From: a bacterium
GTDB lineage: Bacteria > Patescibacteriota > Microgenomatia > UBA8517
Assembly (NCBI GenBank): GCA_021824915.1
Contig: JAKAJP010000022.1
Coordinates: forward strand, 89,832-124,072
DNA length: 34,241 nt
Reading direction: 5' to 3'
The translations under genes and the position numbers were made by a program. This document shows, in pieces, positions 8,203 to 12,370 of this stretch. Numbering within the stretch: the first letter of the stretch is position 1; every line of letters begins with the position of its first letter. Under the pieces are notes generated by a model. The model was not told where the DNA came from. It saw only the letters and a program-made list of their open reading frames with translations, and did no database searches.

Positions 8203-9000
8203 TTATATCGTATTTTGAGGCAATGTTTCTTTTTGTTTTTTGAAGGCAAGATATCCGGAGAATCCCATCAGAACCACACCCGCACCCACCAAAGTAAAAG
8301 CCAAAACAGGAGATTTACTCTCCGAAACCTCTCGGGAAGAAGGTGAGGCCGTCGGAGTTTTAATATCTTCACTACCCAAAATCGATCCGGAAGATTGCGG
8401 GGTTGAGCTTGGAGATTTCGTCGAGCTCGGCTTTGGAGATGGACTTCTGGTCGGGGTAGGAATTGGAGAAGGGGATTTCGTCGGAGAAGGTGAAGAAGTC
8501 GGTTGTGCAGTTGGATCCGGACTTGGTGAGGAGGTGGGAGAAGGTGAAGAAGTTGGAACTGGAGTCGGGGACGGATTTTCCGAACCCTCGGTTACTTGAG
8601 TAAAAACAACAAAGTTACCAATTCCATTTGGACTTCTCCCAAACGTCCTTGAACCACTAATATCTTGGTCATAGGTAAAACTCTCTCCTGTACAACTTAA
8701 AGAAATAGTATCTCCTGAGTTGTTTAACCAATTTCCTATCCATGCGGATGTGACATCCTTTTTCAACACTCTATATCCCAGCGGTAAAATAATATCGCCC
8801 TCGACAAAAGATATTTGTTGAGTTGCACTTCCCATTGATAGAATGCAACCCGACATTGAAACTTCGGAACTGGATGTATTAAAAAGCTCAACCCATTCAC
8901 CATATGGGCTGACTTCATTTATTACAACCTGAGCAAAAACTTGTGAAGGAAATACCAAAAACAAAACAGCAGCGAACAATAACCAAATAAACTTATTCAT
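8203..9000 (-). CDS. Secreted lamin-tail-domain (LTD) protein with Pro/Ser/Thr linker and C-terminal membrane anchor
   Basis: Signal peptide ending VFA-Q; VVINEV, EWVELFN, LNNSGDTISL, GRSPNG; (TSSPSP)n linker; hydrophobic C-terminus followed by KKQK. Confidence 0.82.
   Translation of the reverse strand: MNKFIWLLFAAVLFLVFPSQVFAQVVINEVSPYGEWVELFNTSSSEVSMSGCILSMGSATQQISFVEGDIILPLGYRVLKKDVTSAWIGNWLNNSGDTISLSCTGESFTYDQDISGSRTFGRSPNGIGNFVVFTQVTEGSENPSPTPVPTSSPSPTSSPSPDPTAQPTSSPSPTKSPSPIPTPTRSPSPKPSSTKSPSSTPQSSGSILGSEDIKTPTASPSSREVSESKSPVLAFTLVGAGVVLMGFSGYLAFKKQKETLPQNTI
8483..8553. repeat. 17-bp direct repeat (ggagaaggtgaagaagt at 8483 and 8537) within the low-complexity PST linker
   Basis: Identical 17-mers 54 bp (18 codons) apart; both encode TSSPSP on the minus strand. 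Confidence 0.8.
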
Positions 9001-9053
9001 TAACTAGAAACTATGAATTTATATCAATTTAATAATAACATTAGAAAGAGAAT

Positions 9054-10211
9054 CTACTGGGGAATCATGTGTAAATACCAAACGGTATTTCCATCTCCGT
9101 TATCCACTTTTGCGTAATACAGAGTCCCAGGAAACGCGCCGCCACACTGAATCGCTCCGCCATAAAGCTTCCCGGAATGCACAGCTTTGACTTGAGTGGA
9201 AGAATCTGAGTCCATATCTATTCCGGCATGAACACCACCAGGATAACCAACATCTTTGCCATAACCAGTCTGACCAAACCCTTGATTTATTATTATTGGC
9301 TGCTCAATGGGCCAAGGCCAAGAACCATGAGGGCTAATTTGACCAAAATATCCATATTGATCAGAGCTGTATGAATAACTAAACGATGTCTGACTTAAAT
9401 AATCGTTTGGATTAGCCAGCGAATCTCCTTGATGAACCTCAAAATGCAAATGCCTTCCCGAAGAACATCCAGAAGCAGAGGATATTATATTACCAATTAC
9501 ATCACCCGTGTTTACATCCCTCATAAAAGTTTCTTTACCCAAACCAGAAACGGCAGCGAGCTCAGCGGCAGCCTCGTCCCTTAATTTCGCAAAAATACTC
9601 TCATTGTTTTGTGTAACTGCCAAAAGACTCGCTTTAGCTGCTTTTTGTTGATCAAGTTGAGCCTTTTGAGATATAAGCTGAGATTGTAATGTTTCTTGAT
9701 CAGTTTTCTGCCCTTTATAAACTGTTTGAGCTGTCTGAAGTTTTTCCATGAGATTTGTATCTTCCCGCTGGACCCTCTGTAAATAATGAAATCTCGAGAC
9801 AGCTTCACTCAAATCGGAGGCGGTCAAAATATAAACAAAACTATTCTCAAACCTTGAAAGTTTATAAGTTTCGATGGCTCTCGCGGAAAAAGCCTGAGTC
9901 AAACTAATAAGAGAGATCTCGAGCTGATCAATCCTACCTCCGAGCAATTGTATTTTTGCTTCCGTATCTGAAATCTTTAATTGAGTTAGATTTATCTGCG
10001 CATCGTATTGGGCAATTTGATTAGCCAAGGTTTTAGCTTGAGAATTAAGTAGATTAACTTGATTGTCATAACAACTGACTTTATCTTGACCACTTTTTGA
10101 CGAACAAGGATCGTCGATAGCAAAAGTTGTACCTCGAAATAGATTAACCCCGAAAAATAGTTGTGTTACTATGAAGATTGAAAGAAGTATTTTTTTTGCA
10201 TTATTTTTCAT
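9054..10211 (-). CDS. Coiled-coil plus M23/LytM peptidoglycan endopeptidase (EnvC/PcsB-like FtsEX partner), domain apparently circularly permuted
   Basis: N-terminal signal/TM, long heptad coiled coil, then GRHLHFEV..NPNDYL, followed by WPWP..QGFG..HAGID..WYLHM; overlaps the ftsX stop by 4 nt. Confidence 0.85.
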   Translation of the reverse strand: MKNNAKKILLSIFIVTQLFFGVNLFRGTTFAIDDPCSSKSGQDKVSCYDNQVNLLNSQAKTLANQIAQYDAQINLTQLKISDTEAKIQLLGGRIDQLEISLISLTQAFSARAIETYKLSRFENSFVYILTASDLSEAVSRFHYLQRVQREDTNLMEKLQTAQTVYKGQKTDQETLQSQLISQKAQLDQQKAAKASLLAVTQNNESIFAKLRDEAAAELAAVSGLGKETFMRDVNTGDVIGNIISSASGCSSGRHLHFEVHQGDSLANPNDYLSQTSFSYSYSSDQYGYFGQISPHGSWPWPIEQPIIINQGFGQTGYGKDVGYPGGVHAGIDMDSDSSTQVKAVHSGKLYGGAIQCGGAFPGTLYYAKVDNGDGNTVWYLHMIPQ

Positions 10212-11122
10212 CGTAACTTCTTAACTCTCGAAATTGCTATAGAGCTTCCGGCAAAGGCCAGTATTGAACCCAAAACAACTTCAAGCCCAAAAATAATTCC
10301 AAAAACTTCCAAAAGGCTTAATGTATCTTTCGGCAGTACTGGAATTTCTCCAAAATAAGAAACTATCGTCGGCGCGGAATACAAAACTGCGATAAATGCC
10401 AGAACCCAACCAATTAAAACTCCCACTAGTGCATAAATTAGCGATTCCAAGAAGATCGGCTTACTTATAAAGCCTTTTGTGGCACCAATTAACTTCAAAA
10501 TCTCAACTTCTTCTTTCCTTGTAGCAATTCGCATTGTAATTGTAATAAGCAGCATAAAGAATGATGCCAATGCTAAAATTCCGGTAAATACAATTCCTCC
10601 AACTCGCACGTAAGTTGTTATTGTCTTTAAGCGTCCCACAACGTCCTTGAGATTGTTTTCTCCACCAAGAGCCGCCGTGAAACCTACCGAATCAACAATT
10701 TTTTCTCCTTTGACTTCATCAATTATATTTTGAGTAAAACTTAAATCTTTTACTGAAAACTCCAGTGAGGCAGGAAAAATTGAAGGACTAACAAGCTCTC
10801 CCAAAAGCGGGTTGTCGCTGGTTGCATTTTTATAAATGGAAAGAGCCTCTTCTTTGCTTACATATTTAACGTCTTTAATCCTGCTATCACCTTCAAGTTT
10901 ATGTTGCAAAGCCGCAATGTCGGTATCGCTCGCGTCATCTTTAAGAAATGCAATTACCTGGGGTCGTGTTTCAAAATACATTAAAACTTTTGAAGAAGAA
11001 TAAACCAAAATTGAGACAAGAGTCGCGACAAAAAAAGTCAAAGTTAAAATAAATACTGCAGCAGCAGCCTGAAACGGCGCTCTCTTAATGTAATCCGTTG
11101 CAGTTTTTAGATGAATGTTCAT
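10208..11122 (-). CDS. ftsX: Cell division permease FtsX
   Basis: TM1, extracellular loop with VKYVSKEEAL and NPL, RKEEVEILKLIGAT..FI..PIFLE, three further TMs; next to ftsE. Confidence 0.93.
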   Translation of the reverse strand: MNIHLKTATDYIKRAPFQAAAAVFILTLTFFVATLVSILVYSSSKVLMYFETRPQVIAFLKDDASDTDIAALQHKLEGDSRIKDVKYVSKEEALSIYKNATSDNPLLGELVSPSIFPASLEFSVKDLSFTQNIIDEVKGEKIVDSVGFTAALGGENNLKDVVGRLKTITTYVRVGGIVFTGILALASFFMLLITITMRIATRKEEVEILKLIGATKGFISKPIFLESLIYALVGVLIGWVLAFIAVLYSAPTIVSYFGEIPVLPKDTLSLLEVFGIIFGLEVVLGSILAFAGSSIAISRVKKLR

Positions 11123-11225: not shown

Positions 11226-11900
11226 TCAGGTTTTGGAAATCTTACCACCCACAATATGAATGACTCTTTTCTGGTGCTTTTTAACAATTTCCTTGTTGTG
11301 TGTGGCCATAATCACGGTCTTGCCTTCCTTATTTATCTTTTCAAATAATTCCATCACCGAATCCGAGGTTTCCCAATCCAAATTTCCCGTTGGTTCATCC
11401 GCCAATAAAATCATCGGATTAACAACTAATGCGCGGGCTAACGAGACCCTTTGAAGTTCTCCACCAGAAAGTTGCGCGGGAAATAAATTGGTTTGCTTTG
11501 TTAAACCGACCAGTTTCAAAACATGCTTCACTCTTTCGCTCCATTCTTTTTCAGGTAATCCTATTACCGCCAAGGCTACCTCCACGTTCTCGGCAACGGT
11601 GCGTTCCATCAAAACTTTGAAATCCTGAAAAACCACTCCAATCTTCTGGCGAAACAATGGGGTTTCAGATTCTTTTAAATTTCCGGTATTTACTCCACCA
11701 ACCTCTACCTTTCCACTATCCGGAAGTAGCTCTGCCAAAATAAGTTTGAGGATTGTTGTTTTCCCTGCACCGGATGGACCAGTTATAAAAACAAATTCGC
11801 CGTGTCCAATCTCAAAAGAAACCTTATCAAGAGCGCTAACTACACCAAATTTTTTGCTTACATCACTAAATTTAACCAAGTGTTTTGAAGCTTCACTCAT
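11226..11900 (-). CDS. ftsE: Cell division ABC ATPase FtsE
   Basis: Walker A GPSGAGKT, RQKIGVVFQDF, LSGGELQRVSLARA, LADEPTGNLD, MATHN. Confidence 0.95.
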   Translation of the reverse strand: MSEASKHLVKFSDVSKKFGVVSALDKVSFEIGHGEFVFITGPSGAGKTTILKLILAELLPDSGKVEVGGVNTGNLKESETPLFRQKIGVVFQDFKVLMERTVAENVEVALAVIGLPEKEWSERVKHVLKLVGLTKQTNLFPAQLSGGELQRVSLARALVVNPMILLADEPTGNLDWETSDSVMELFEKINKEGKTVIMATHNKEIVKKHQKRVIHIVGGKISKT

Positions 11901-11926: not shown

Positions 11927-12370
11927 CTATTGAACAACCTTAATCATGACCACATCCATTAACCACGGAGCGCTCTTTGCAGCCAAAGTATTTCCCCAAA
12001 CCTGAACCTTTTTACCAACAAAACTCCCCAAATCAACCACACTTGAAGTTAAATAGACATAGTGGCTGGGTCCTGCATCACTTGTAAGATGATACCTCCC
12101 CTCACCTTCGATTCCCCCTTCGGCCAACGTACCTGTAGCATTATCCCCCTTAAAATCCTTTGGCAAAACTCCGGCTTCCGTCTGAGTAACTTTTGCACCC
12201 GGCGCCCCTTTAGCACTGGAGCCTCCGGTAAGTTTTCCCGAAACCAGCCAGCCGGTGCCCAAACCTAATAAAACCACAATAACGGCGCCAATAATAAGGG
12301 GTGAGATACGCTTTACATCAAACTTTGGAAAACTCTTTAACATTTGGGGGGCTTGAAACTGCGTTTCCAT
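11927..12370 (-). CDS. Membrane-anchored hypothetical protein with a small beta-rich (OB-like) C-terminal domain
   Basis: One TM (IIGAVIVVLLGLGTGWLV); C-terminus YHLTSD..YLTSSVVDLGSFVGKKVQVWG. The OB-fold call is an impression only. Confidence 0.7.
   Translation of the reverse strand: METQFQAPQMLKSFPKFDVKRISPLIIGAVIVVLLGLGTGWLVSGKLTGGSSAKGAPGAKVTQTEAGVLPKDFKGDNATGTLAEGGIEGEGRYHLTSDAGPSHYVYLTSSVVDLGSFVGKKVQVWGNTLAAKSAPWLMDVVMIKVVQ

Follow-up and report, generated by a model that had tools for sequence, protein, structure and literature searches.

Intensive work on how the cell wall is cut safely during division uses M23/LytM enzymes and FtsEX-controlled hydrolases as models, and the same enzymes are lead scaffolds for enzybiotics. 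In the 34,241-nucleotide stretch of patescibacterial DNA analysed here (the window), the gene directly behind ftsE and ftsX encodes a coiled-coil protein whose M23 motifs stand in a swapped order. This raises the question whether the gene encodes a genuine FtsEX partner, whether its rearranged peptidase domain can be a complete enzyme, and what the rearrangement could mean for control by FtsEX.

A coiled-coil M23 gene overlaps ftsX

The gene is the first after ftsE-ftsX, and its ATG shares four bases (ATGA) with the TGA stop codon of ftsX, as read in the sequence. The locus and the N-terminal part of the encoded protein comprise:

11226..11900, reverse strand: ftsE, ABC ATPase of 224 residues (Pfam ABC_tran, E 3e-34; position kept in the syntenic locus L041)
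10208..11122, reverse strand: ftsX, 304 residues (Pfam FtsX_ECD, E 8e-16, and FtsX permease, E 2e-14)
9054..10211, reverse strand: whole gene, coiled coil and circularly permuted M23 peptidase (385 residues and stop)
10122..10211, reverse strand: putative N-terminal signal peptide or membrane anchor, residues 1-30 (AF2 helix 3-24 and direct sequence reading)
9549..10091, reverse strand: antiparallel helical hairpin, residues 41-221, presumed FtsX-binding stalk (AF2 secondary structure, Foldseek and a weak CC_PcsB match)

The gene order prfB-orf-ftsE-ftsX-M23-LTD-VanZ-epimerase is identical in locus L041, at 48% identity. An FtsX gene lies immediately upstream of the permuted genes in loci L001-L004, and this adjacency holds from 79% down to 26% identity, the lowest value belonging to the Berkelbacteria form (L004). 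Permuted forms behind ftsX occur in Microgenomates, Berkelbacteria and other CPR. The linkage to ftsEX put forward in the original prediction is thus confirmed by the four-base overlap, the Pfam assignments of FtsE and FtsX, the synteny with L041 and the adjacency in L001-L004. None of the sampled words of the gene was matched in metatranscriptomes from the same study.

The N-terminus (residues 1-30) carries KK, the hydrophobic helix and a TFA-ID sequence. As modelled by AF2, the hairpin consists of helices 41-121 and 134-221, and many of its positions are near-invariant in an alignment of 111 sequences. Foldseek with the full-length model, in which the coiled coil dominates, ranked Vibrio cholerae EnvC in its FtsEX complex first (8tzl_E), and further matches were EnvC 6tpi_A, PcsB 4cgk and RipA; EnvC is the best whole-protein match by phmmer as well. 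The Pfam CC_PcsB match is weak and covers residues 105-162. At its end the hairpin has a conserved Ala-rich stretch (L210, A214, A216 and E217; pLDDT 61-73), which, judging from the model, might act as an autoinhibitory element. Stalk and domain are not separated by a further helix of some 50 residues: helix 2 extends to residue 221, and the first strand begins at 228.

A gene that merely adjoins ftsEX could instead encode an independent autolysin or a predatory lysin outside FtsEX control. The permuted module does occur in architectures away from ftsEX (P0171, P0205 and P0238), and in Portnoybacteria (L007) and Minisyncoccota (L015) the coiled-coil M23 genes of canonical order have no ftsX neighbour. 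Nevertheless, the overlap of the start codon with the ftsX stop, the persistence of the adjacency as far as L004 and the strongly conserved stalk, which is EnvC- and PcsB-like, make such independence very unlikely.

The two parts of the M23 domain are swapped

Behind the stalk, the peptidase domain divides into three segments:

9387..9536, reverse strand: M23 'C-terminal' third, now first, residues 226-275 (Pfam profile 62-96; hhalign canonical columns 99-145)
9327..9386, reverse strand: aromatic-rich structured linker TSFSYSYSSDQYGYFGQISPH, residues 276-295 (pLDDT 97-98 in the domain model)
9057..9326, reverse strand: M23 'N-terminal' two-thirds, now last, residues 296-385 (Pfam profile 2-52; lysostaphin 19-84; hhalign canonical columns 13-97)

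The first segment reads VNTGDVIG ... GCSSGRHLHFEV ... NPNDYL and the last WPWP ... QGFG ... HAGID ... VKAVHSG ... WYLHMIPQ. Instead of the collinear M23 order (WP, HxxxD, YxH, GD hairpin, HxH, NPxxYL), the protein therefore presents GD hairpin, HxH, NPxxYL, linker, WP, HxxxD and YxH. The linker bridges the old C-terminus and the old N-terminus of the M23 domain; in the Berkelbacteria form L004 it is only five residues long (NPRDYL-GGVLS-WP).

Profile searches bear this out. The Pfam M23 profile gives two partial matches in reversed profile order, the outcome that the original prediction had expected of this check. Searched by itself, the N-terminal piece matches profile positions 62-96 with 24.7 bits and the C-terminal piece positions 2-52 with 18.4 bits; artificial re-ordering of the sequence yields one match that covers positions 2-96 of 96, with 43.6 bits. 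In a phmmer search of the PDB, residues 312-382 align to lysostaphin 19-84 and residues 233-259 to lysostaphin 95-119. With hhalign, the native order gives two alignments (query 52-140 to canonical columns 13-97, E 6e-22; query 3-51 to columns 99-145, E 1e-21), and the de-permuted form gives a single one over 132 columns (E 8.9e-44). By these alignments the permutation match is far above chance, with no residues lost at the cut, and the domain is a homologue of M23 (PF01551) with a non-canonical topology.

The cut falls between canonical profile columns 97 and 99, directly behind the strand of the catalytic His, and because of this placement the stalk enters the M23 fold at a different point. 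The predicted swap of the two halves and the altered attachment of the coiled coil thus both stand, and the coordinates given with them are correct throughout (HLH at 9452-9444, HAGID at 9230-9216, the last His at 9071-9069, then four codons and the stop at 9056-9054). We take the cut site to fall in one of the variable groove-wall loops that normal M23 enzymes have between HxxxD and HxH. This is consistent with PMC9662197.

A swapped order might also arise from a local assembly error or a chimera in the window. Logan contigs of two low-depth runs do stop at 9448-9506, and a 127-nucleotide contig shares 9432-9467, including the HLH motif, and diverges thereafter. Branching of the assembly graph at the most conserved M23 motif best accounts for these breaks. 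A 13,978-nucleotide contig from one run (X2) and a contig from a different study (X3) both span 8800-10500 with 0 differences, and the same order of halves recurs in more than 200 homologues from independent assemblies, which rules out mis-assembly for practical purposes.

Zinc ligands and catalytic histidines are invariant

The residues that would make up the active site, and a pair of cysteines specific to the family, map as follows:

9444..9452, reverse strand: HLH motif, predicted catalytic H254 and Zn ligand H256 (invariant in 111 sequences)
9216..9230, reverse strand: HAGID, predicted Zn ligands H328 and D332 (invariant in 111 sequences)
9069..9071, reverse strand: H381, predicted catalytic His of the YxH motif (invariant; four codons, MIPQ, ahead of the stop)
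9465..9467, reverse strand: C249, N-half member of the Cys pair (co-occurs and co-shifts with C356)
9144..9146, reverse strand: C356, C-half member of the Cys pair (co-occurs and co-shifts with C249)

H254, H256, H328, D332 and H381 are all invariant in 111 homologues with identity to the query as low as 44%, as is Y379 of the YxH motif, and the Berkelbacteria form (L004), though distant, has all five as well. The earlier reading that every Zn ligand and catalytic His is retained, unlike in the degenerate EnvC, is upheld by this invariance. Of 189 family members, 175 end 2-4 residues past the His that corresponds to H381.

These data bear on whether the domain is an enzyme or a catalytically dead regulator that activates a separate amidase in the manner of EnvC and NlpD. 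The latter would be in line with EnvC, which works as an activator (PMC7668044), is the nearest FtsEX partner of characterised structure that has an M23-type domain, and is the top Foldseek match of the whole protein. However, EnvC itself has lost its catalytic residues (PMC7668044), whereas the three Zn ligands and both catalytic His are preserved here, so that the domain shows none of the losses of an EnvC-type dead domain; furthermore, the FtsEX partners of monoderms, PcsB, CwlO and RipC, are hydrolases themselves (PMC11627006). A dead regulator is thus improbable. We consider it likely that the gene encodes an extracytoplasmic FtsEX partner that combines an EnvC/PcsB-like hairpin with a complete, catalytically competent and circularly permuted M23 endopeptidase.

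The halves are predicted to form one compact domain

AF2 models residues 224-385 as a single compact all-beta unit with a pLDDT of 96.0 and a pTM of 0.91. The two halves would accordingly fold as one M23-like unit in which the Zn site is rebuilt from H328, D332 and H256, with H254 and H381 serving as the catalytic His residues. Searched with the domain-only model, Foldseek retrieved no M23 structure from the PDB (best E 1.7) and none from BFVD, where nothing but weak matches to two cyanophage virion proteins (E 0.03-0.05) came up. Foldseek depends on chain order and may miss a permuted topology; with M23 structures not recovered by it, the assignment to the M23 fold draws on sequence homology and on the compactness of the AF2 model.

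Coupling between the halves is also visible in the alignment. Both cysteines are present in 201 of 210 family members and neither in 5, with 4 discordant cases, a count that ignores phylogeny; C249 and C356 probably form a family-specific disulfide that holds the two halves together. By MI-APC, a statistic that likewise takes no account of phylogeny, 12 of the 25 top pairs link the N-half with the C-half, among them pairs that connect the C-terminal tail to the strand now at the N-terminus, and covarying pairs were found inside the linker (residues 276-295) too.

If the halves did not complement each other within one chain, the protein could be a domain-swapped dimer, or its halves could be relics of two truncated domains. 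The failure of Foldseek to recognise M23 in either database could be taken in this sense, as could the inhibited dimer in PcsB crystals (PMC11627006). Yet the single chain is modelled with high pTM, and the five-residue linker of L004 fits termini that are adjacent in the normal M23 fold. Relic halves would not retain five catalytic residues together with a covarying Cys pair, and the same permuted module terminates the unrelated large proteins mentioned above. We regard non-complementary halves as extremely unlikely, and favour one self-contained domain.

Relation to known FtsEX partners and a model of activation

The closest counterparts by position are proteins of Firmicutes, represented by loci from Clostridia MAGs (L006, L008 and L029), where the same slot behind ftsX holds canonical-order coiled-coil M23 genes. 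They share with the window protein a signal, a coiled coil of about 250 residues, a C-terminal M23 domain with intact HxxxD, YxH and HxH, and a similar length (390-425 residues). In contrast, their M23 domain follows the PF01551 order, with the stalk attached at the WP/L1 end and the chain leading out behind NPxxYL; the stalk of the window protein is attached immediately past the strand of the catalytic His, which is also where the chain ends.

EnvC of Escherichia coli, V. cholerae and Pseudomonas aeruginosa (6TPI, 8TZL and 8I6O) likewise is a secreted, FtsEX-bound hairpin with a C-terminal LytM/M23-type domain. Its LytM domain, however, has the normal order, is degenerate and activates AmiA and AmiB, and its stalk is separated from that domain by a restraining arm of 50 residues (222-278; PMC7668044). 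The window protein differs in keeping all catalytic residues, in its swapped order and in having only about six residues between helix 2 and the first strand. PcsB, CwlO and RipC of monoderms and mycobacteria also join an FtsX-bound coiled-coil stalk, matched weakly here by CC_PcsB, to a C-terminal domain, which cuts peptidoglycan itself and is autoinhibited (PMC11627006); these domains are CHAP or NlpC/P60 cysteine peptidases rather than M23 metallopeptidases. Lysostaphin, LytM and LasA (M23B, PF01551) share the homologous core and all motifs, aligning over the 132 columns once the window protein is de-permuted. They are nonetheless collinear, are kept latent by N-terminal pro-regions (PMC9662197), and have neither a coiled coil nor a link to FtsEX.

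By analogy with PcsB, CwlO and RipC, the enzyme itself would cut septal peptidoglycan cross-links. The two-helix hairpin is presumed to dock between two FtsX extracellular domains, and the enzyme would stay latent until ATP-driven movement of FtsEX travels along the hairpin. Since the stalk is joined elsewhere, it is plausible from the sequence that the swap alters the mechanism of activation. In attachment point and in latency element alike the family departs from EnvC, PcsB and RipC, and it can be seen as a natural experiment on how force passes from the FtsEX stalk to a catalytic domain.

A more far-reaching proposal is that the permutation is an adaptive rewiring, not a neutral accident, and that FtsEX movement directly gates or assembles the active site. 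Here about six residues, and no restraining arm, would connect the last stalk helix to the hairpin ahead of HxH, and the catalytic His would sit on a free C-terminal tail that is kept at 2-4 residues. We make this proposal tentatively and think it less likely than not; if true, it would be a kind of latency new to both M23 enzymes and FtsEX partners.

Distribution and origin of the permuted domain

A word-indexed search returned 588 homologues. About 100 clusters at 50% identity have a single full-domain match, mostly proteins of 380-420 residues with the domain at the C-terminus. Among the retrieved proteins 210 are permuted and 31 canonical, and a scan of genome contigs, using a pattern that matches every M23, contained at least 4 permuted loci. 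Judged by these homologues, the swap is common to hundreds of ultrasmall CPR/Patescibacteria bacteria, and the permuted M23 domain could serve as a clade marker across much of Patescibacteria. The family further indicates that the M23 fold tolerates new termini beside the catalytic His.

As the original prediction had supposed, no description of a permuted M23 domain was found in the literature searched (M23/LytM, EnvC, and FtsEX in CPR/Patescibacteria), and the M23 review PMC9662197 does not mention permutation. Owing to the permutation, the members of this family in CPR genomes carry no more than a hypothetical or 'faint' M23 label, a shortcoming that a dedicated HMM would mend. A natural circular permutation of a peptidoglycan-peptidase domain with swapped catalytic order does have a parallel in NlpC/P60 (YaeF/poxvirus G6R, LRAT-like; Anantharaman and Aravind 2003, cited in PMC6403190); those domains differ from the window protein in fold and in catalytic type.

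The permuted module also ends unrelated large proteins away from ftsEX, one of which (P0205) carries Exo_endo_phos. P0171, with 1256 residues and the permuted domain at its end, has no relative among IMG/VR viral contigs, which leaves a phage origin unsupported.

A tree constrained to one permuted clade has the higher likelihood (p-AU 0.94), with the proviso that it was built from 142 columns and that de-permutation introduces an artificial junction, which may draw permuted sequences together; the data thus do not require two independent origins. The rearrangement most likely arose once, through duplication of the M23 domain and subsequent loss of the outer parts. This route is plausible because proteins with a coiled coil and tandem M23-M23 domains exist today (P0201, P0245 and P0233).

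A circularly permuted M23 domain follows ftsX

The 385-residue protein encoded directly behind ftsX carries a genuine, conserved topological variant of the M23 family in a known regulatory setting. Its gene is a single ORF, and its ATG shares four bases with the TGA of the upstream gene (ATGA).

Genes around the peptidase, from downstream to upstream
Beyond the Lamin-Tail-Domain gene: VanZ protein, epimerase
8203-9000, minus strand: Lamin-Tail-Domain protein, immediately after the peptidase gene
9054-10211, minus strand: permuted M23 peptidase, 385 aa
Directly upstream of the peptidase gene: ftsX (Pfam FtsX_ECD and FtsX permease)
Upstream, with ftsX: ftsE (Pfam ABC_tran)
11927-12370, minus strand: small unannotated 147-aa ORF between prfB and ftsE, with an N-terminal hydrophobic helix
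Farther upstream than ftsE, with the small ORF: prfB

A Pfam scan of the 147-aa ORF gave no match; a 145-aa unannotated gene occupies the equivalent position in the syntenic locus L041. The Lamin-Tail-Domain protein has a long Pro/Thr/Ser-rich spacer and a hydrophobic anchor at its C-terminus. The same gene type lies behind permuted M23 genes in the comparison loci L002 and L003 (Pfam LTD) and in L001 and L041 (sequence likeness). This gene may be part of the same envelope or division operon as the peptidase.

The coordinates of the original prediction, which had described an M23/LytM peptidase with exchanged halves, are correct throughout, placing HLH (H254-H256) at 9452-9444 and HAGID (H328-D332) at 9230-9216; the chain indeed terminates close to the catalytic His, H381 being followed by MIPQ and the stop codon. 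Pfam Peptidase_M23 matches the full protein with 34.8 bits, over the gathering score, split in two stretches, the better of which aligns residues 232-268 with profile positions 62-96 of 96. The two partial matches in reversed order that had been anticipated were thus found in the whole protein, and again in its separate pieces.

Pfam Peptidase_M23 matches of rearranged pieces
Residues 296-385 alone: profile 2-52, 18.4 bits
Residues 226-275 alone: profile 62-96, 24.7 bits
Artificial chain, 296-385 then 226-275: profile 2-96 in a single match, 43.6 bits

Likewise, phmmer against PDB sequences aligned residues 312-382 with lysostaphin 19-84 and residues 233-259 with lysostaphin 95-119. Profiles of 80 family members and 47 normal-order M23 domains were then compared with hhalign, the family profile being used in native order and de-permuted, that is, with its halves re-joined in normal order.

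Profile comparison with hhalign
De-permuted: 132 columns end to end, probability 100%, E 8.9e-44, score 248
Native order, first alignment: query 52-140 to template 13-97, E 6e-22, score 127
Native order, second alignment: query 3-51 to template 99-145, E 1e-21, score 125

Added together, the scores of the native-order alignments amount to the de-permuted score, and the cut falls between canonical template columns 97 and 99, the hallmark of a clean circular permutation without loss of any part.

Predicted structure

In the full-length AF2 model (pLDDT 87.5), a helix read as a signal peptide or anchor (residues 3-24) precedes a hairpin stalk (helices 41-121 and 134-221); a six-residue linker then leads into an all-beta domain, which starts at residue 228. 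Among PDB structures, the model most resembles FtsEX-bound V. cholerae EnvC (8tzl_E), E. coli EnvC (6tpi), PcsB (4cgk) and the RipA N-terminal domain. Modelled alone, residues 224-385 reach a pLDDT of 96.0 and a pTM of 0.91, a prediction that describes one rigid unit rather than two loose half-domains. Foldseek searches with this domain model returned no M23 structure from the PDB (best E 1.7) and no M23 from BFVD, where just two weak cyanophage matches appeared. Foldseek may be blind to the permuted fold, because its alignments follow the order of the chain and its structural alphabet draws on how far apart residues lie in the sequence. The predicted M23 fold is identified by the unambiguous sequence homology of both halves together with the compact model.

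The permuted form is a widespread family

A local mis-assembly, which could have exchanged the halves artificially, had been named as a possible objection to the original prediction. Five public metagenome runs contain the gene sequence; they belong to two studies, one of mine drainage and one of groundwater. The stretch 8800-10500 is spanned with zero differences by a 13,978-nt contig from one run and by a contig from the other study. Contigs of two low-depth runs (Logan) stop at 9448-9506, and a 127-nt contig of another run has 36 bases in common (9432-9467, the HLH motif) and diverges thereafter. These breaks at 9432-9506 probably reflect a branch of the assembly graph at the most conserved M23 motif, caused by the M23 gene of another organism. 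An assembly artefact is ruled out by the difference-free contigs from two studies and, more decisively, by the existence of a permuted homologue family.

A word-indexed search yielded 588 homologues, the best 120 of which are 43-79% identical to the query and named Woesebacteria, Gottesmanbacteria, Microgenomates group, Parcubacteria group and Patescibacteria group. Among all proteins retrieved, the motif order is permuted in 210 and normal in 31. Exhaustive phmmer with the domain only, against 1.84 billion representatives, gave 266 matches. About 100 clusters (50% identity) match the entire permuted domain without interruption, and almost all of these are 380-420 aa long with the domain at the extreme C-terminus; normal M23 proteins enter only from about E 1e-7, as two-stretch matches.

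The module also terminates three large unrelated proteins, with the Cys pair described below kept: P0171 (1256 aa, L038 6001-9771, surrounded by very large ORFs that lack annotation), P0205 (894 aa, which also has an Exo_endo_phos domain) and P0238 (2174 aa, with TSP3 repeats). The permuted M23 thus works as an autonomous domain. A Pfam scan of the 1424-aa and 455-aa ORFs neighbouring P0171 was without match, and no relatives of P0171 were found in IMG/VR.

Conserved residues and covariation

Two alignments, one of 21 and one of 111 sequences, show H254, H256, H328, D332 and H381 to be invariant, so that the Zn ligands and catalytic His originally read as retained are kept by all 111 members; G252, P268, W300-P301, Q310, G313 and G330 are invariant as well. 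Two cysteines, one in each half, are near-invariant: C249, which precedes HxH by five residues, and C356. Both are present in 201 of the 210 permuted proteins and neither in 5, with 4 discordant; when the first Cys lies at -6 instead of -5, the second shifts from +27/28 to +30-32. This covariation, which ignores kinship, is consistent with a putative C249-C356 disulfide that would staple one half to the other.

In 175 of 189 members, 2-4 residues follow the catalytic His before the chain ends. By MI-APC (208 sequences, Neff 142; the statistic ignores kinship), 12 of the top 25 pairs join the N-half to the C-half, and several tie the new first strand (227-241) to the C-terminal tail (382-384) and to strand 365-366. 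Uncorrected for kinship as it is, such covariation is what would be expected of two new termini lying side by side. A second conserved Cys pair, C36/C47 (window 10071-10106; consensus AxxC...IxCY), lies at the N-terminal base of the stalk in many homologues, though not all, and may form a disulfide.

Relatives linked to ftsX

A survey of ftsEX-adjacent genes, as had been proposed, places a permuted M23 behind ftsX in L001-L004 and L041. L041 lies on a 499-kb contig; its homologue, 48% identical, is embedded in the gene order of the window (prfB, small ORF, ftsE, ftsX, permuted M23, 256-aa protein, VanZ, epimerase). The precomputed Pfam M23 match of this protein is merely 'faint'; the permutation thus hides the domain from annotation, in line with the earlier expectation that standard HMMs would return split partial matches. 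Among species-representative genomes, the permuted gene immediately follows a Pfam-confirmed ftsX in at least four loci, L001, L002, L003 (Patescibacteria UBA10118) and L004 (Berkelbacteria). The L004 protein scores 94 bits on Pfam M23, also in two stretches, has motifs near consensus (GSTGFSTGPHLHFEV, and YGHMID at the end) and is without the Cys pair. Its old termini are linked by five residues (NPRDYL-GGVLS-WP), which fits their adjacency in the normal M23 fold. L001, in a record titled uncultured Gammaproteobacteria, shows the CPR-type order of ftsX, permuted M23 and LTD-like gene, at 42% identity to the window; the taxonomic label looks wrong.

In the Clostridia loci L006, L008 and L029, normal-order coiled-coil M23 proteins hold the slot behind ftsX. 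Two such genes, tandem paralogues, follow ftsX in succession in the MAG loci L006 (2560-5390) and L008 (2935-5387). Normal-order coiled-coil M23 genes of Portnoybacteria (L007) and Minisyncoccota (L015) come after a gltX-like gene, not ftsX.

Proposed mode of action

FtsEX passes ATP-driven movements to a coiled-coil partner. Since all its catalytic residues are invariant, we take the window protein to be an active endopeptidase, which by analogy with other monoderm systems would be switched on by FtsEX at the septum; an EnvC-like activator role was set aside on the same grounds. M23 enzymes bind Zn through H(x)nD and the second His of HxH, two further His being catalytic; their groove is formed by variable loops L1-L4, and N-terminal helices or pro-regions are commonly latency devices (PMC9662197). 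In EnvC, a restraining arm of 50 residues (222-278) occupies the LytM groove and keeps the protein inactive (PMC7668044). PcsB, CwlO and RipC act as hydrolases in their own right, with autoinhibition via their stalks (PMC11627006).

The window protein shares its slot and parts with the ftsX-linked coiled-coil M23 proteins of Firmicutes, whose topology is normal. It shares partner and stalk with EnvC, which has a dead domain and the arm; its logic with PcsB, CwlO and RipC, whose catalytic fold is different; and its catalytic core with lysostaphin and LytM, which lack the stalk. In the model, confidence is lowest at the end of stalk helix 2, a conserved Ala-rich stretch (L210, A214, A216, E217), from which about six residues lead to the hairpin running into HxH; the C-terminal tail that bears the catalytic His is short and free, and a separate restraining arm is absent. 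The end of helix 2 might occlude the groove or, alternatively, stalk motion might distort or assemble the active site. A further reading, on which the permutation would give rise to direct gating without any arm, we hold as somewhat doubtful.

A permuted peptidoglycan peptidase has a precedent in NlpC/P60, at least as cited in PMC6403190. Neither the full-text literature searched nor the M23 review (PMC9662197) mentions a permuted M23, in agreement with the original prediction, which knew of no description; the topology is apparently undescribed so far.

Origin of the permutation

A quick tree (142 columns) that combines 80 de-permuted domains with 47 normal M23 domains contains three state changes, of which its well-supported branches compel just one. 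Constraining the permuted domains to a single clade gave a tree 69.75 log-likelihood units above the quick free tree (p-AU 0.94). A single origin, which this test does not reject, seems likely, on 142 columns in which the artificial junction may draw permuted sequences together. Two or three tandem normal M23 domains occur in the retrieved proteins P0233, P0227 and P0249. In P0201 and P0245, a helical, coiled-coil-like stretch (judged by eye) precedes M23-M23, whose two domains are joined by about 30 residues; this architecture is the intermediate expected for a duplication-and-trimming route.
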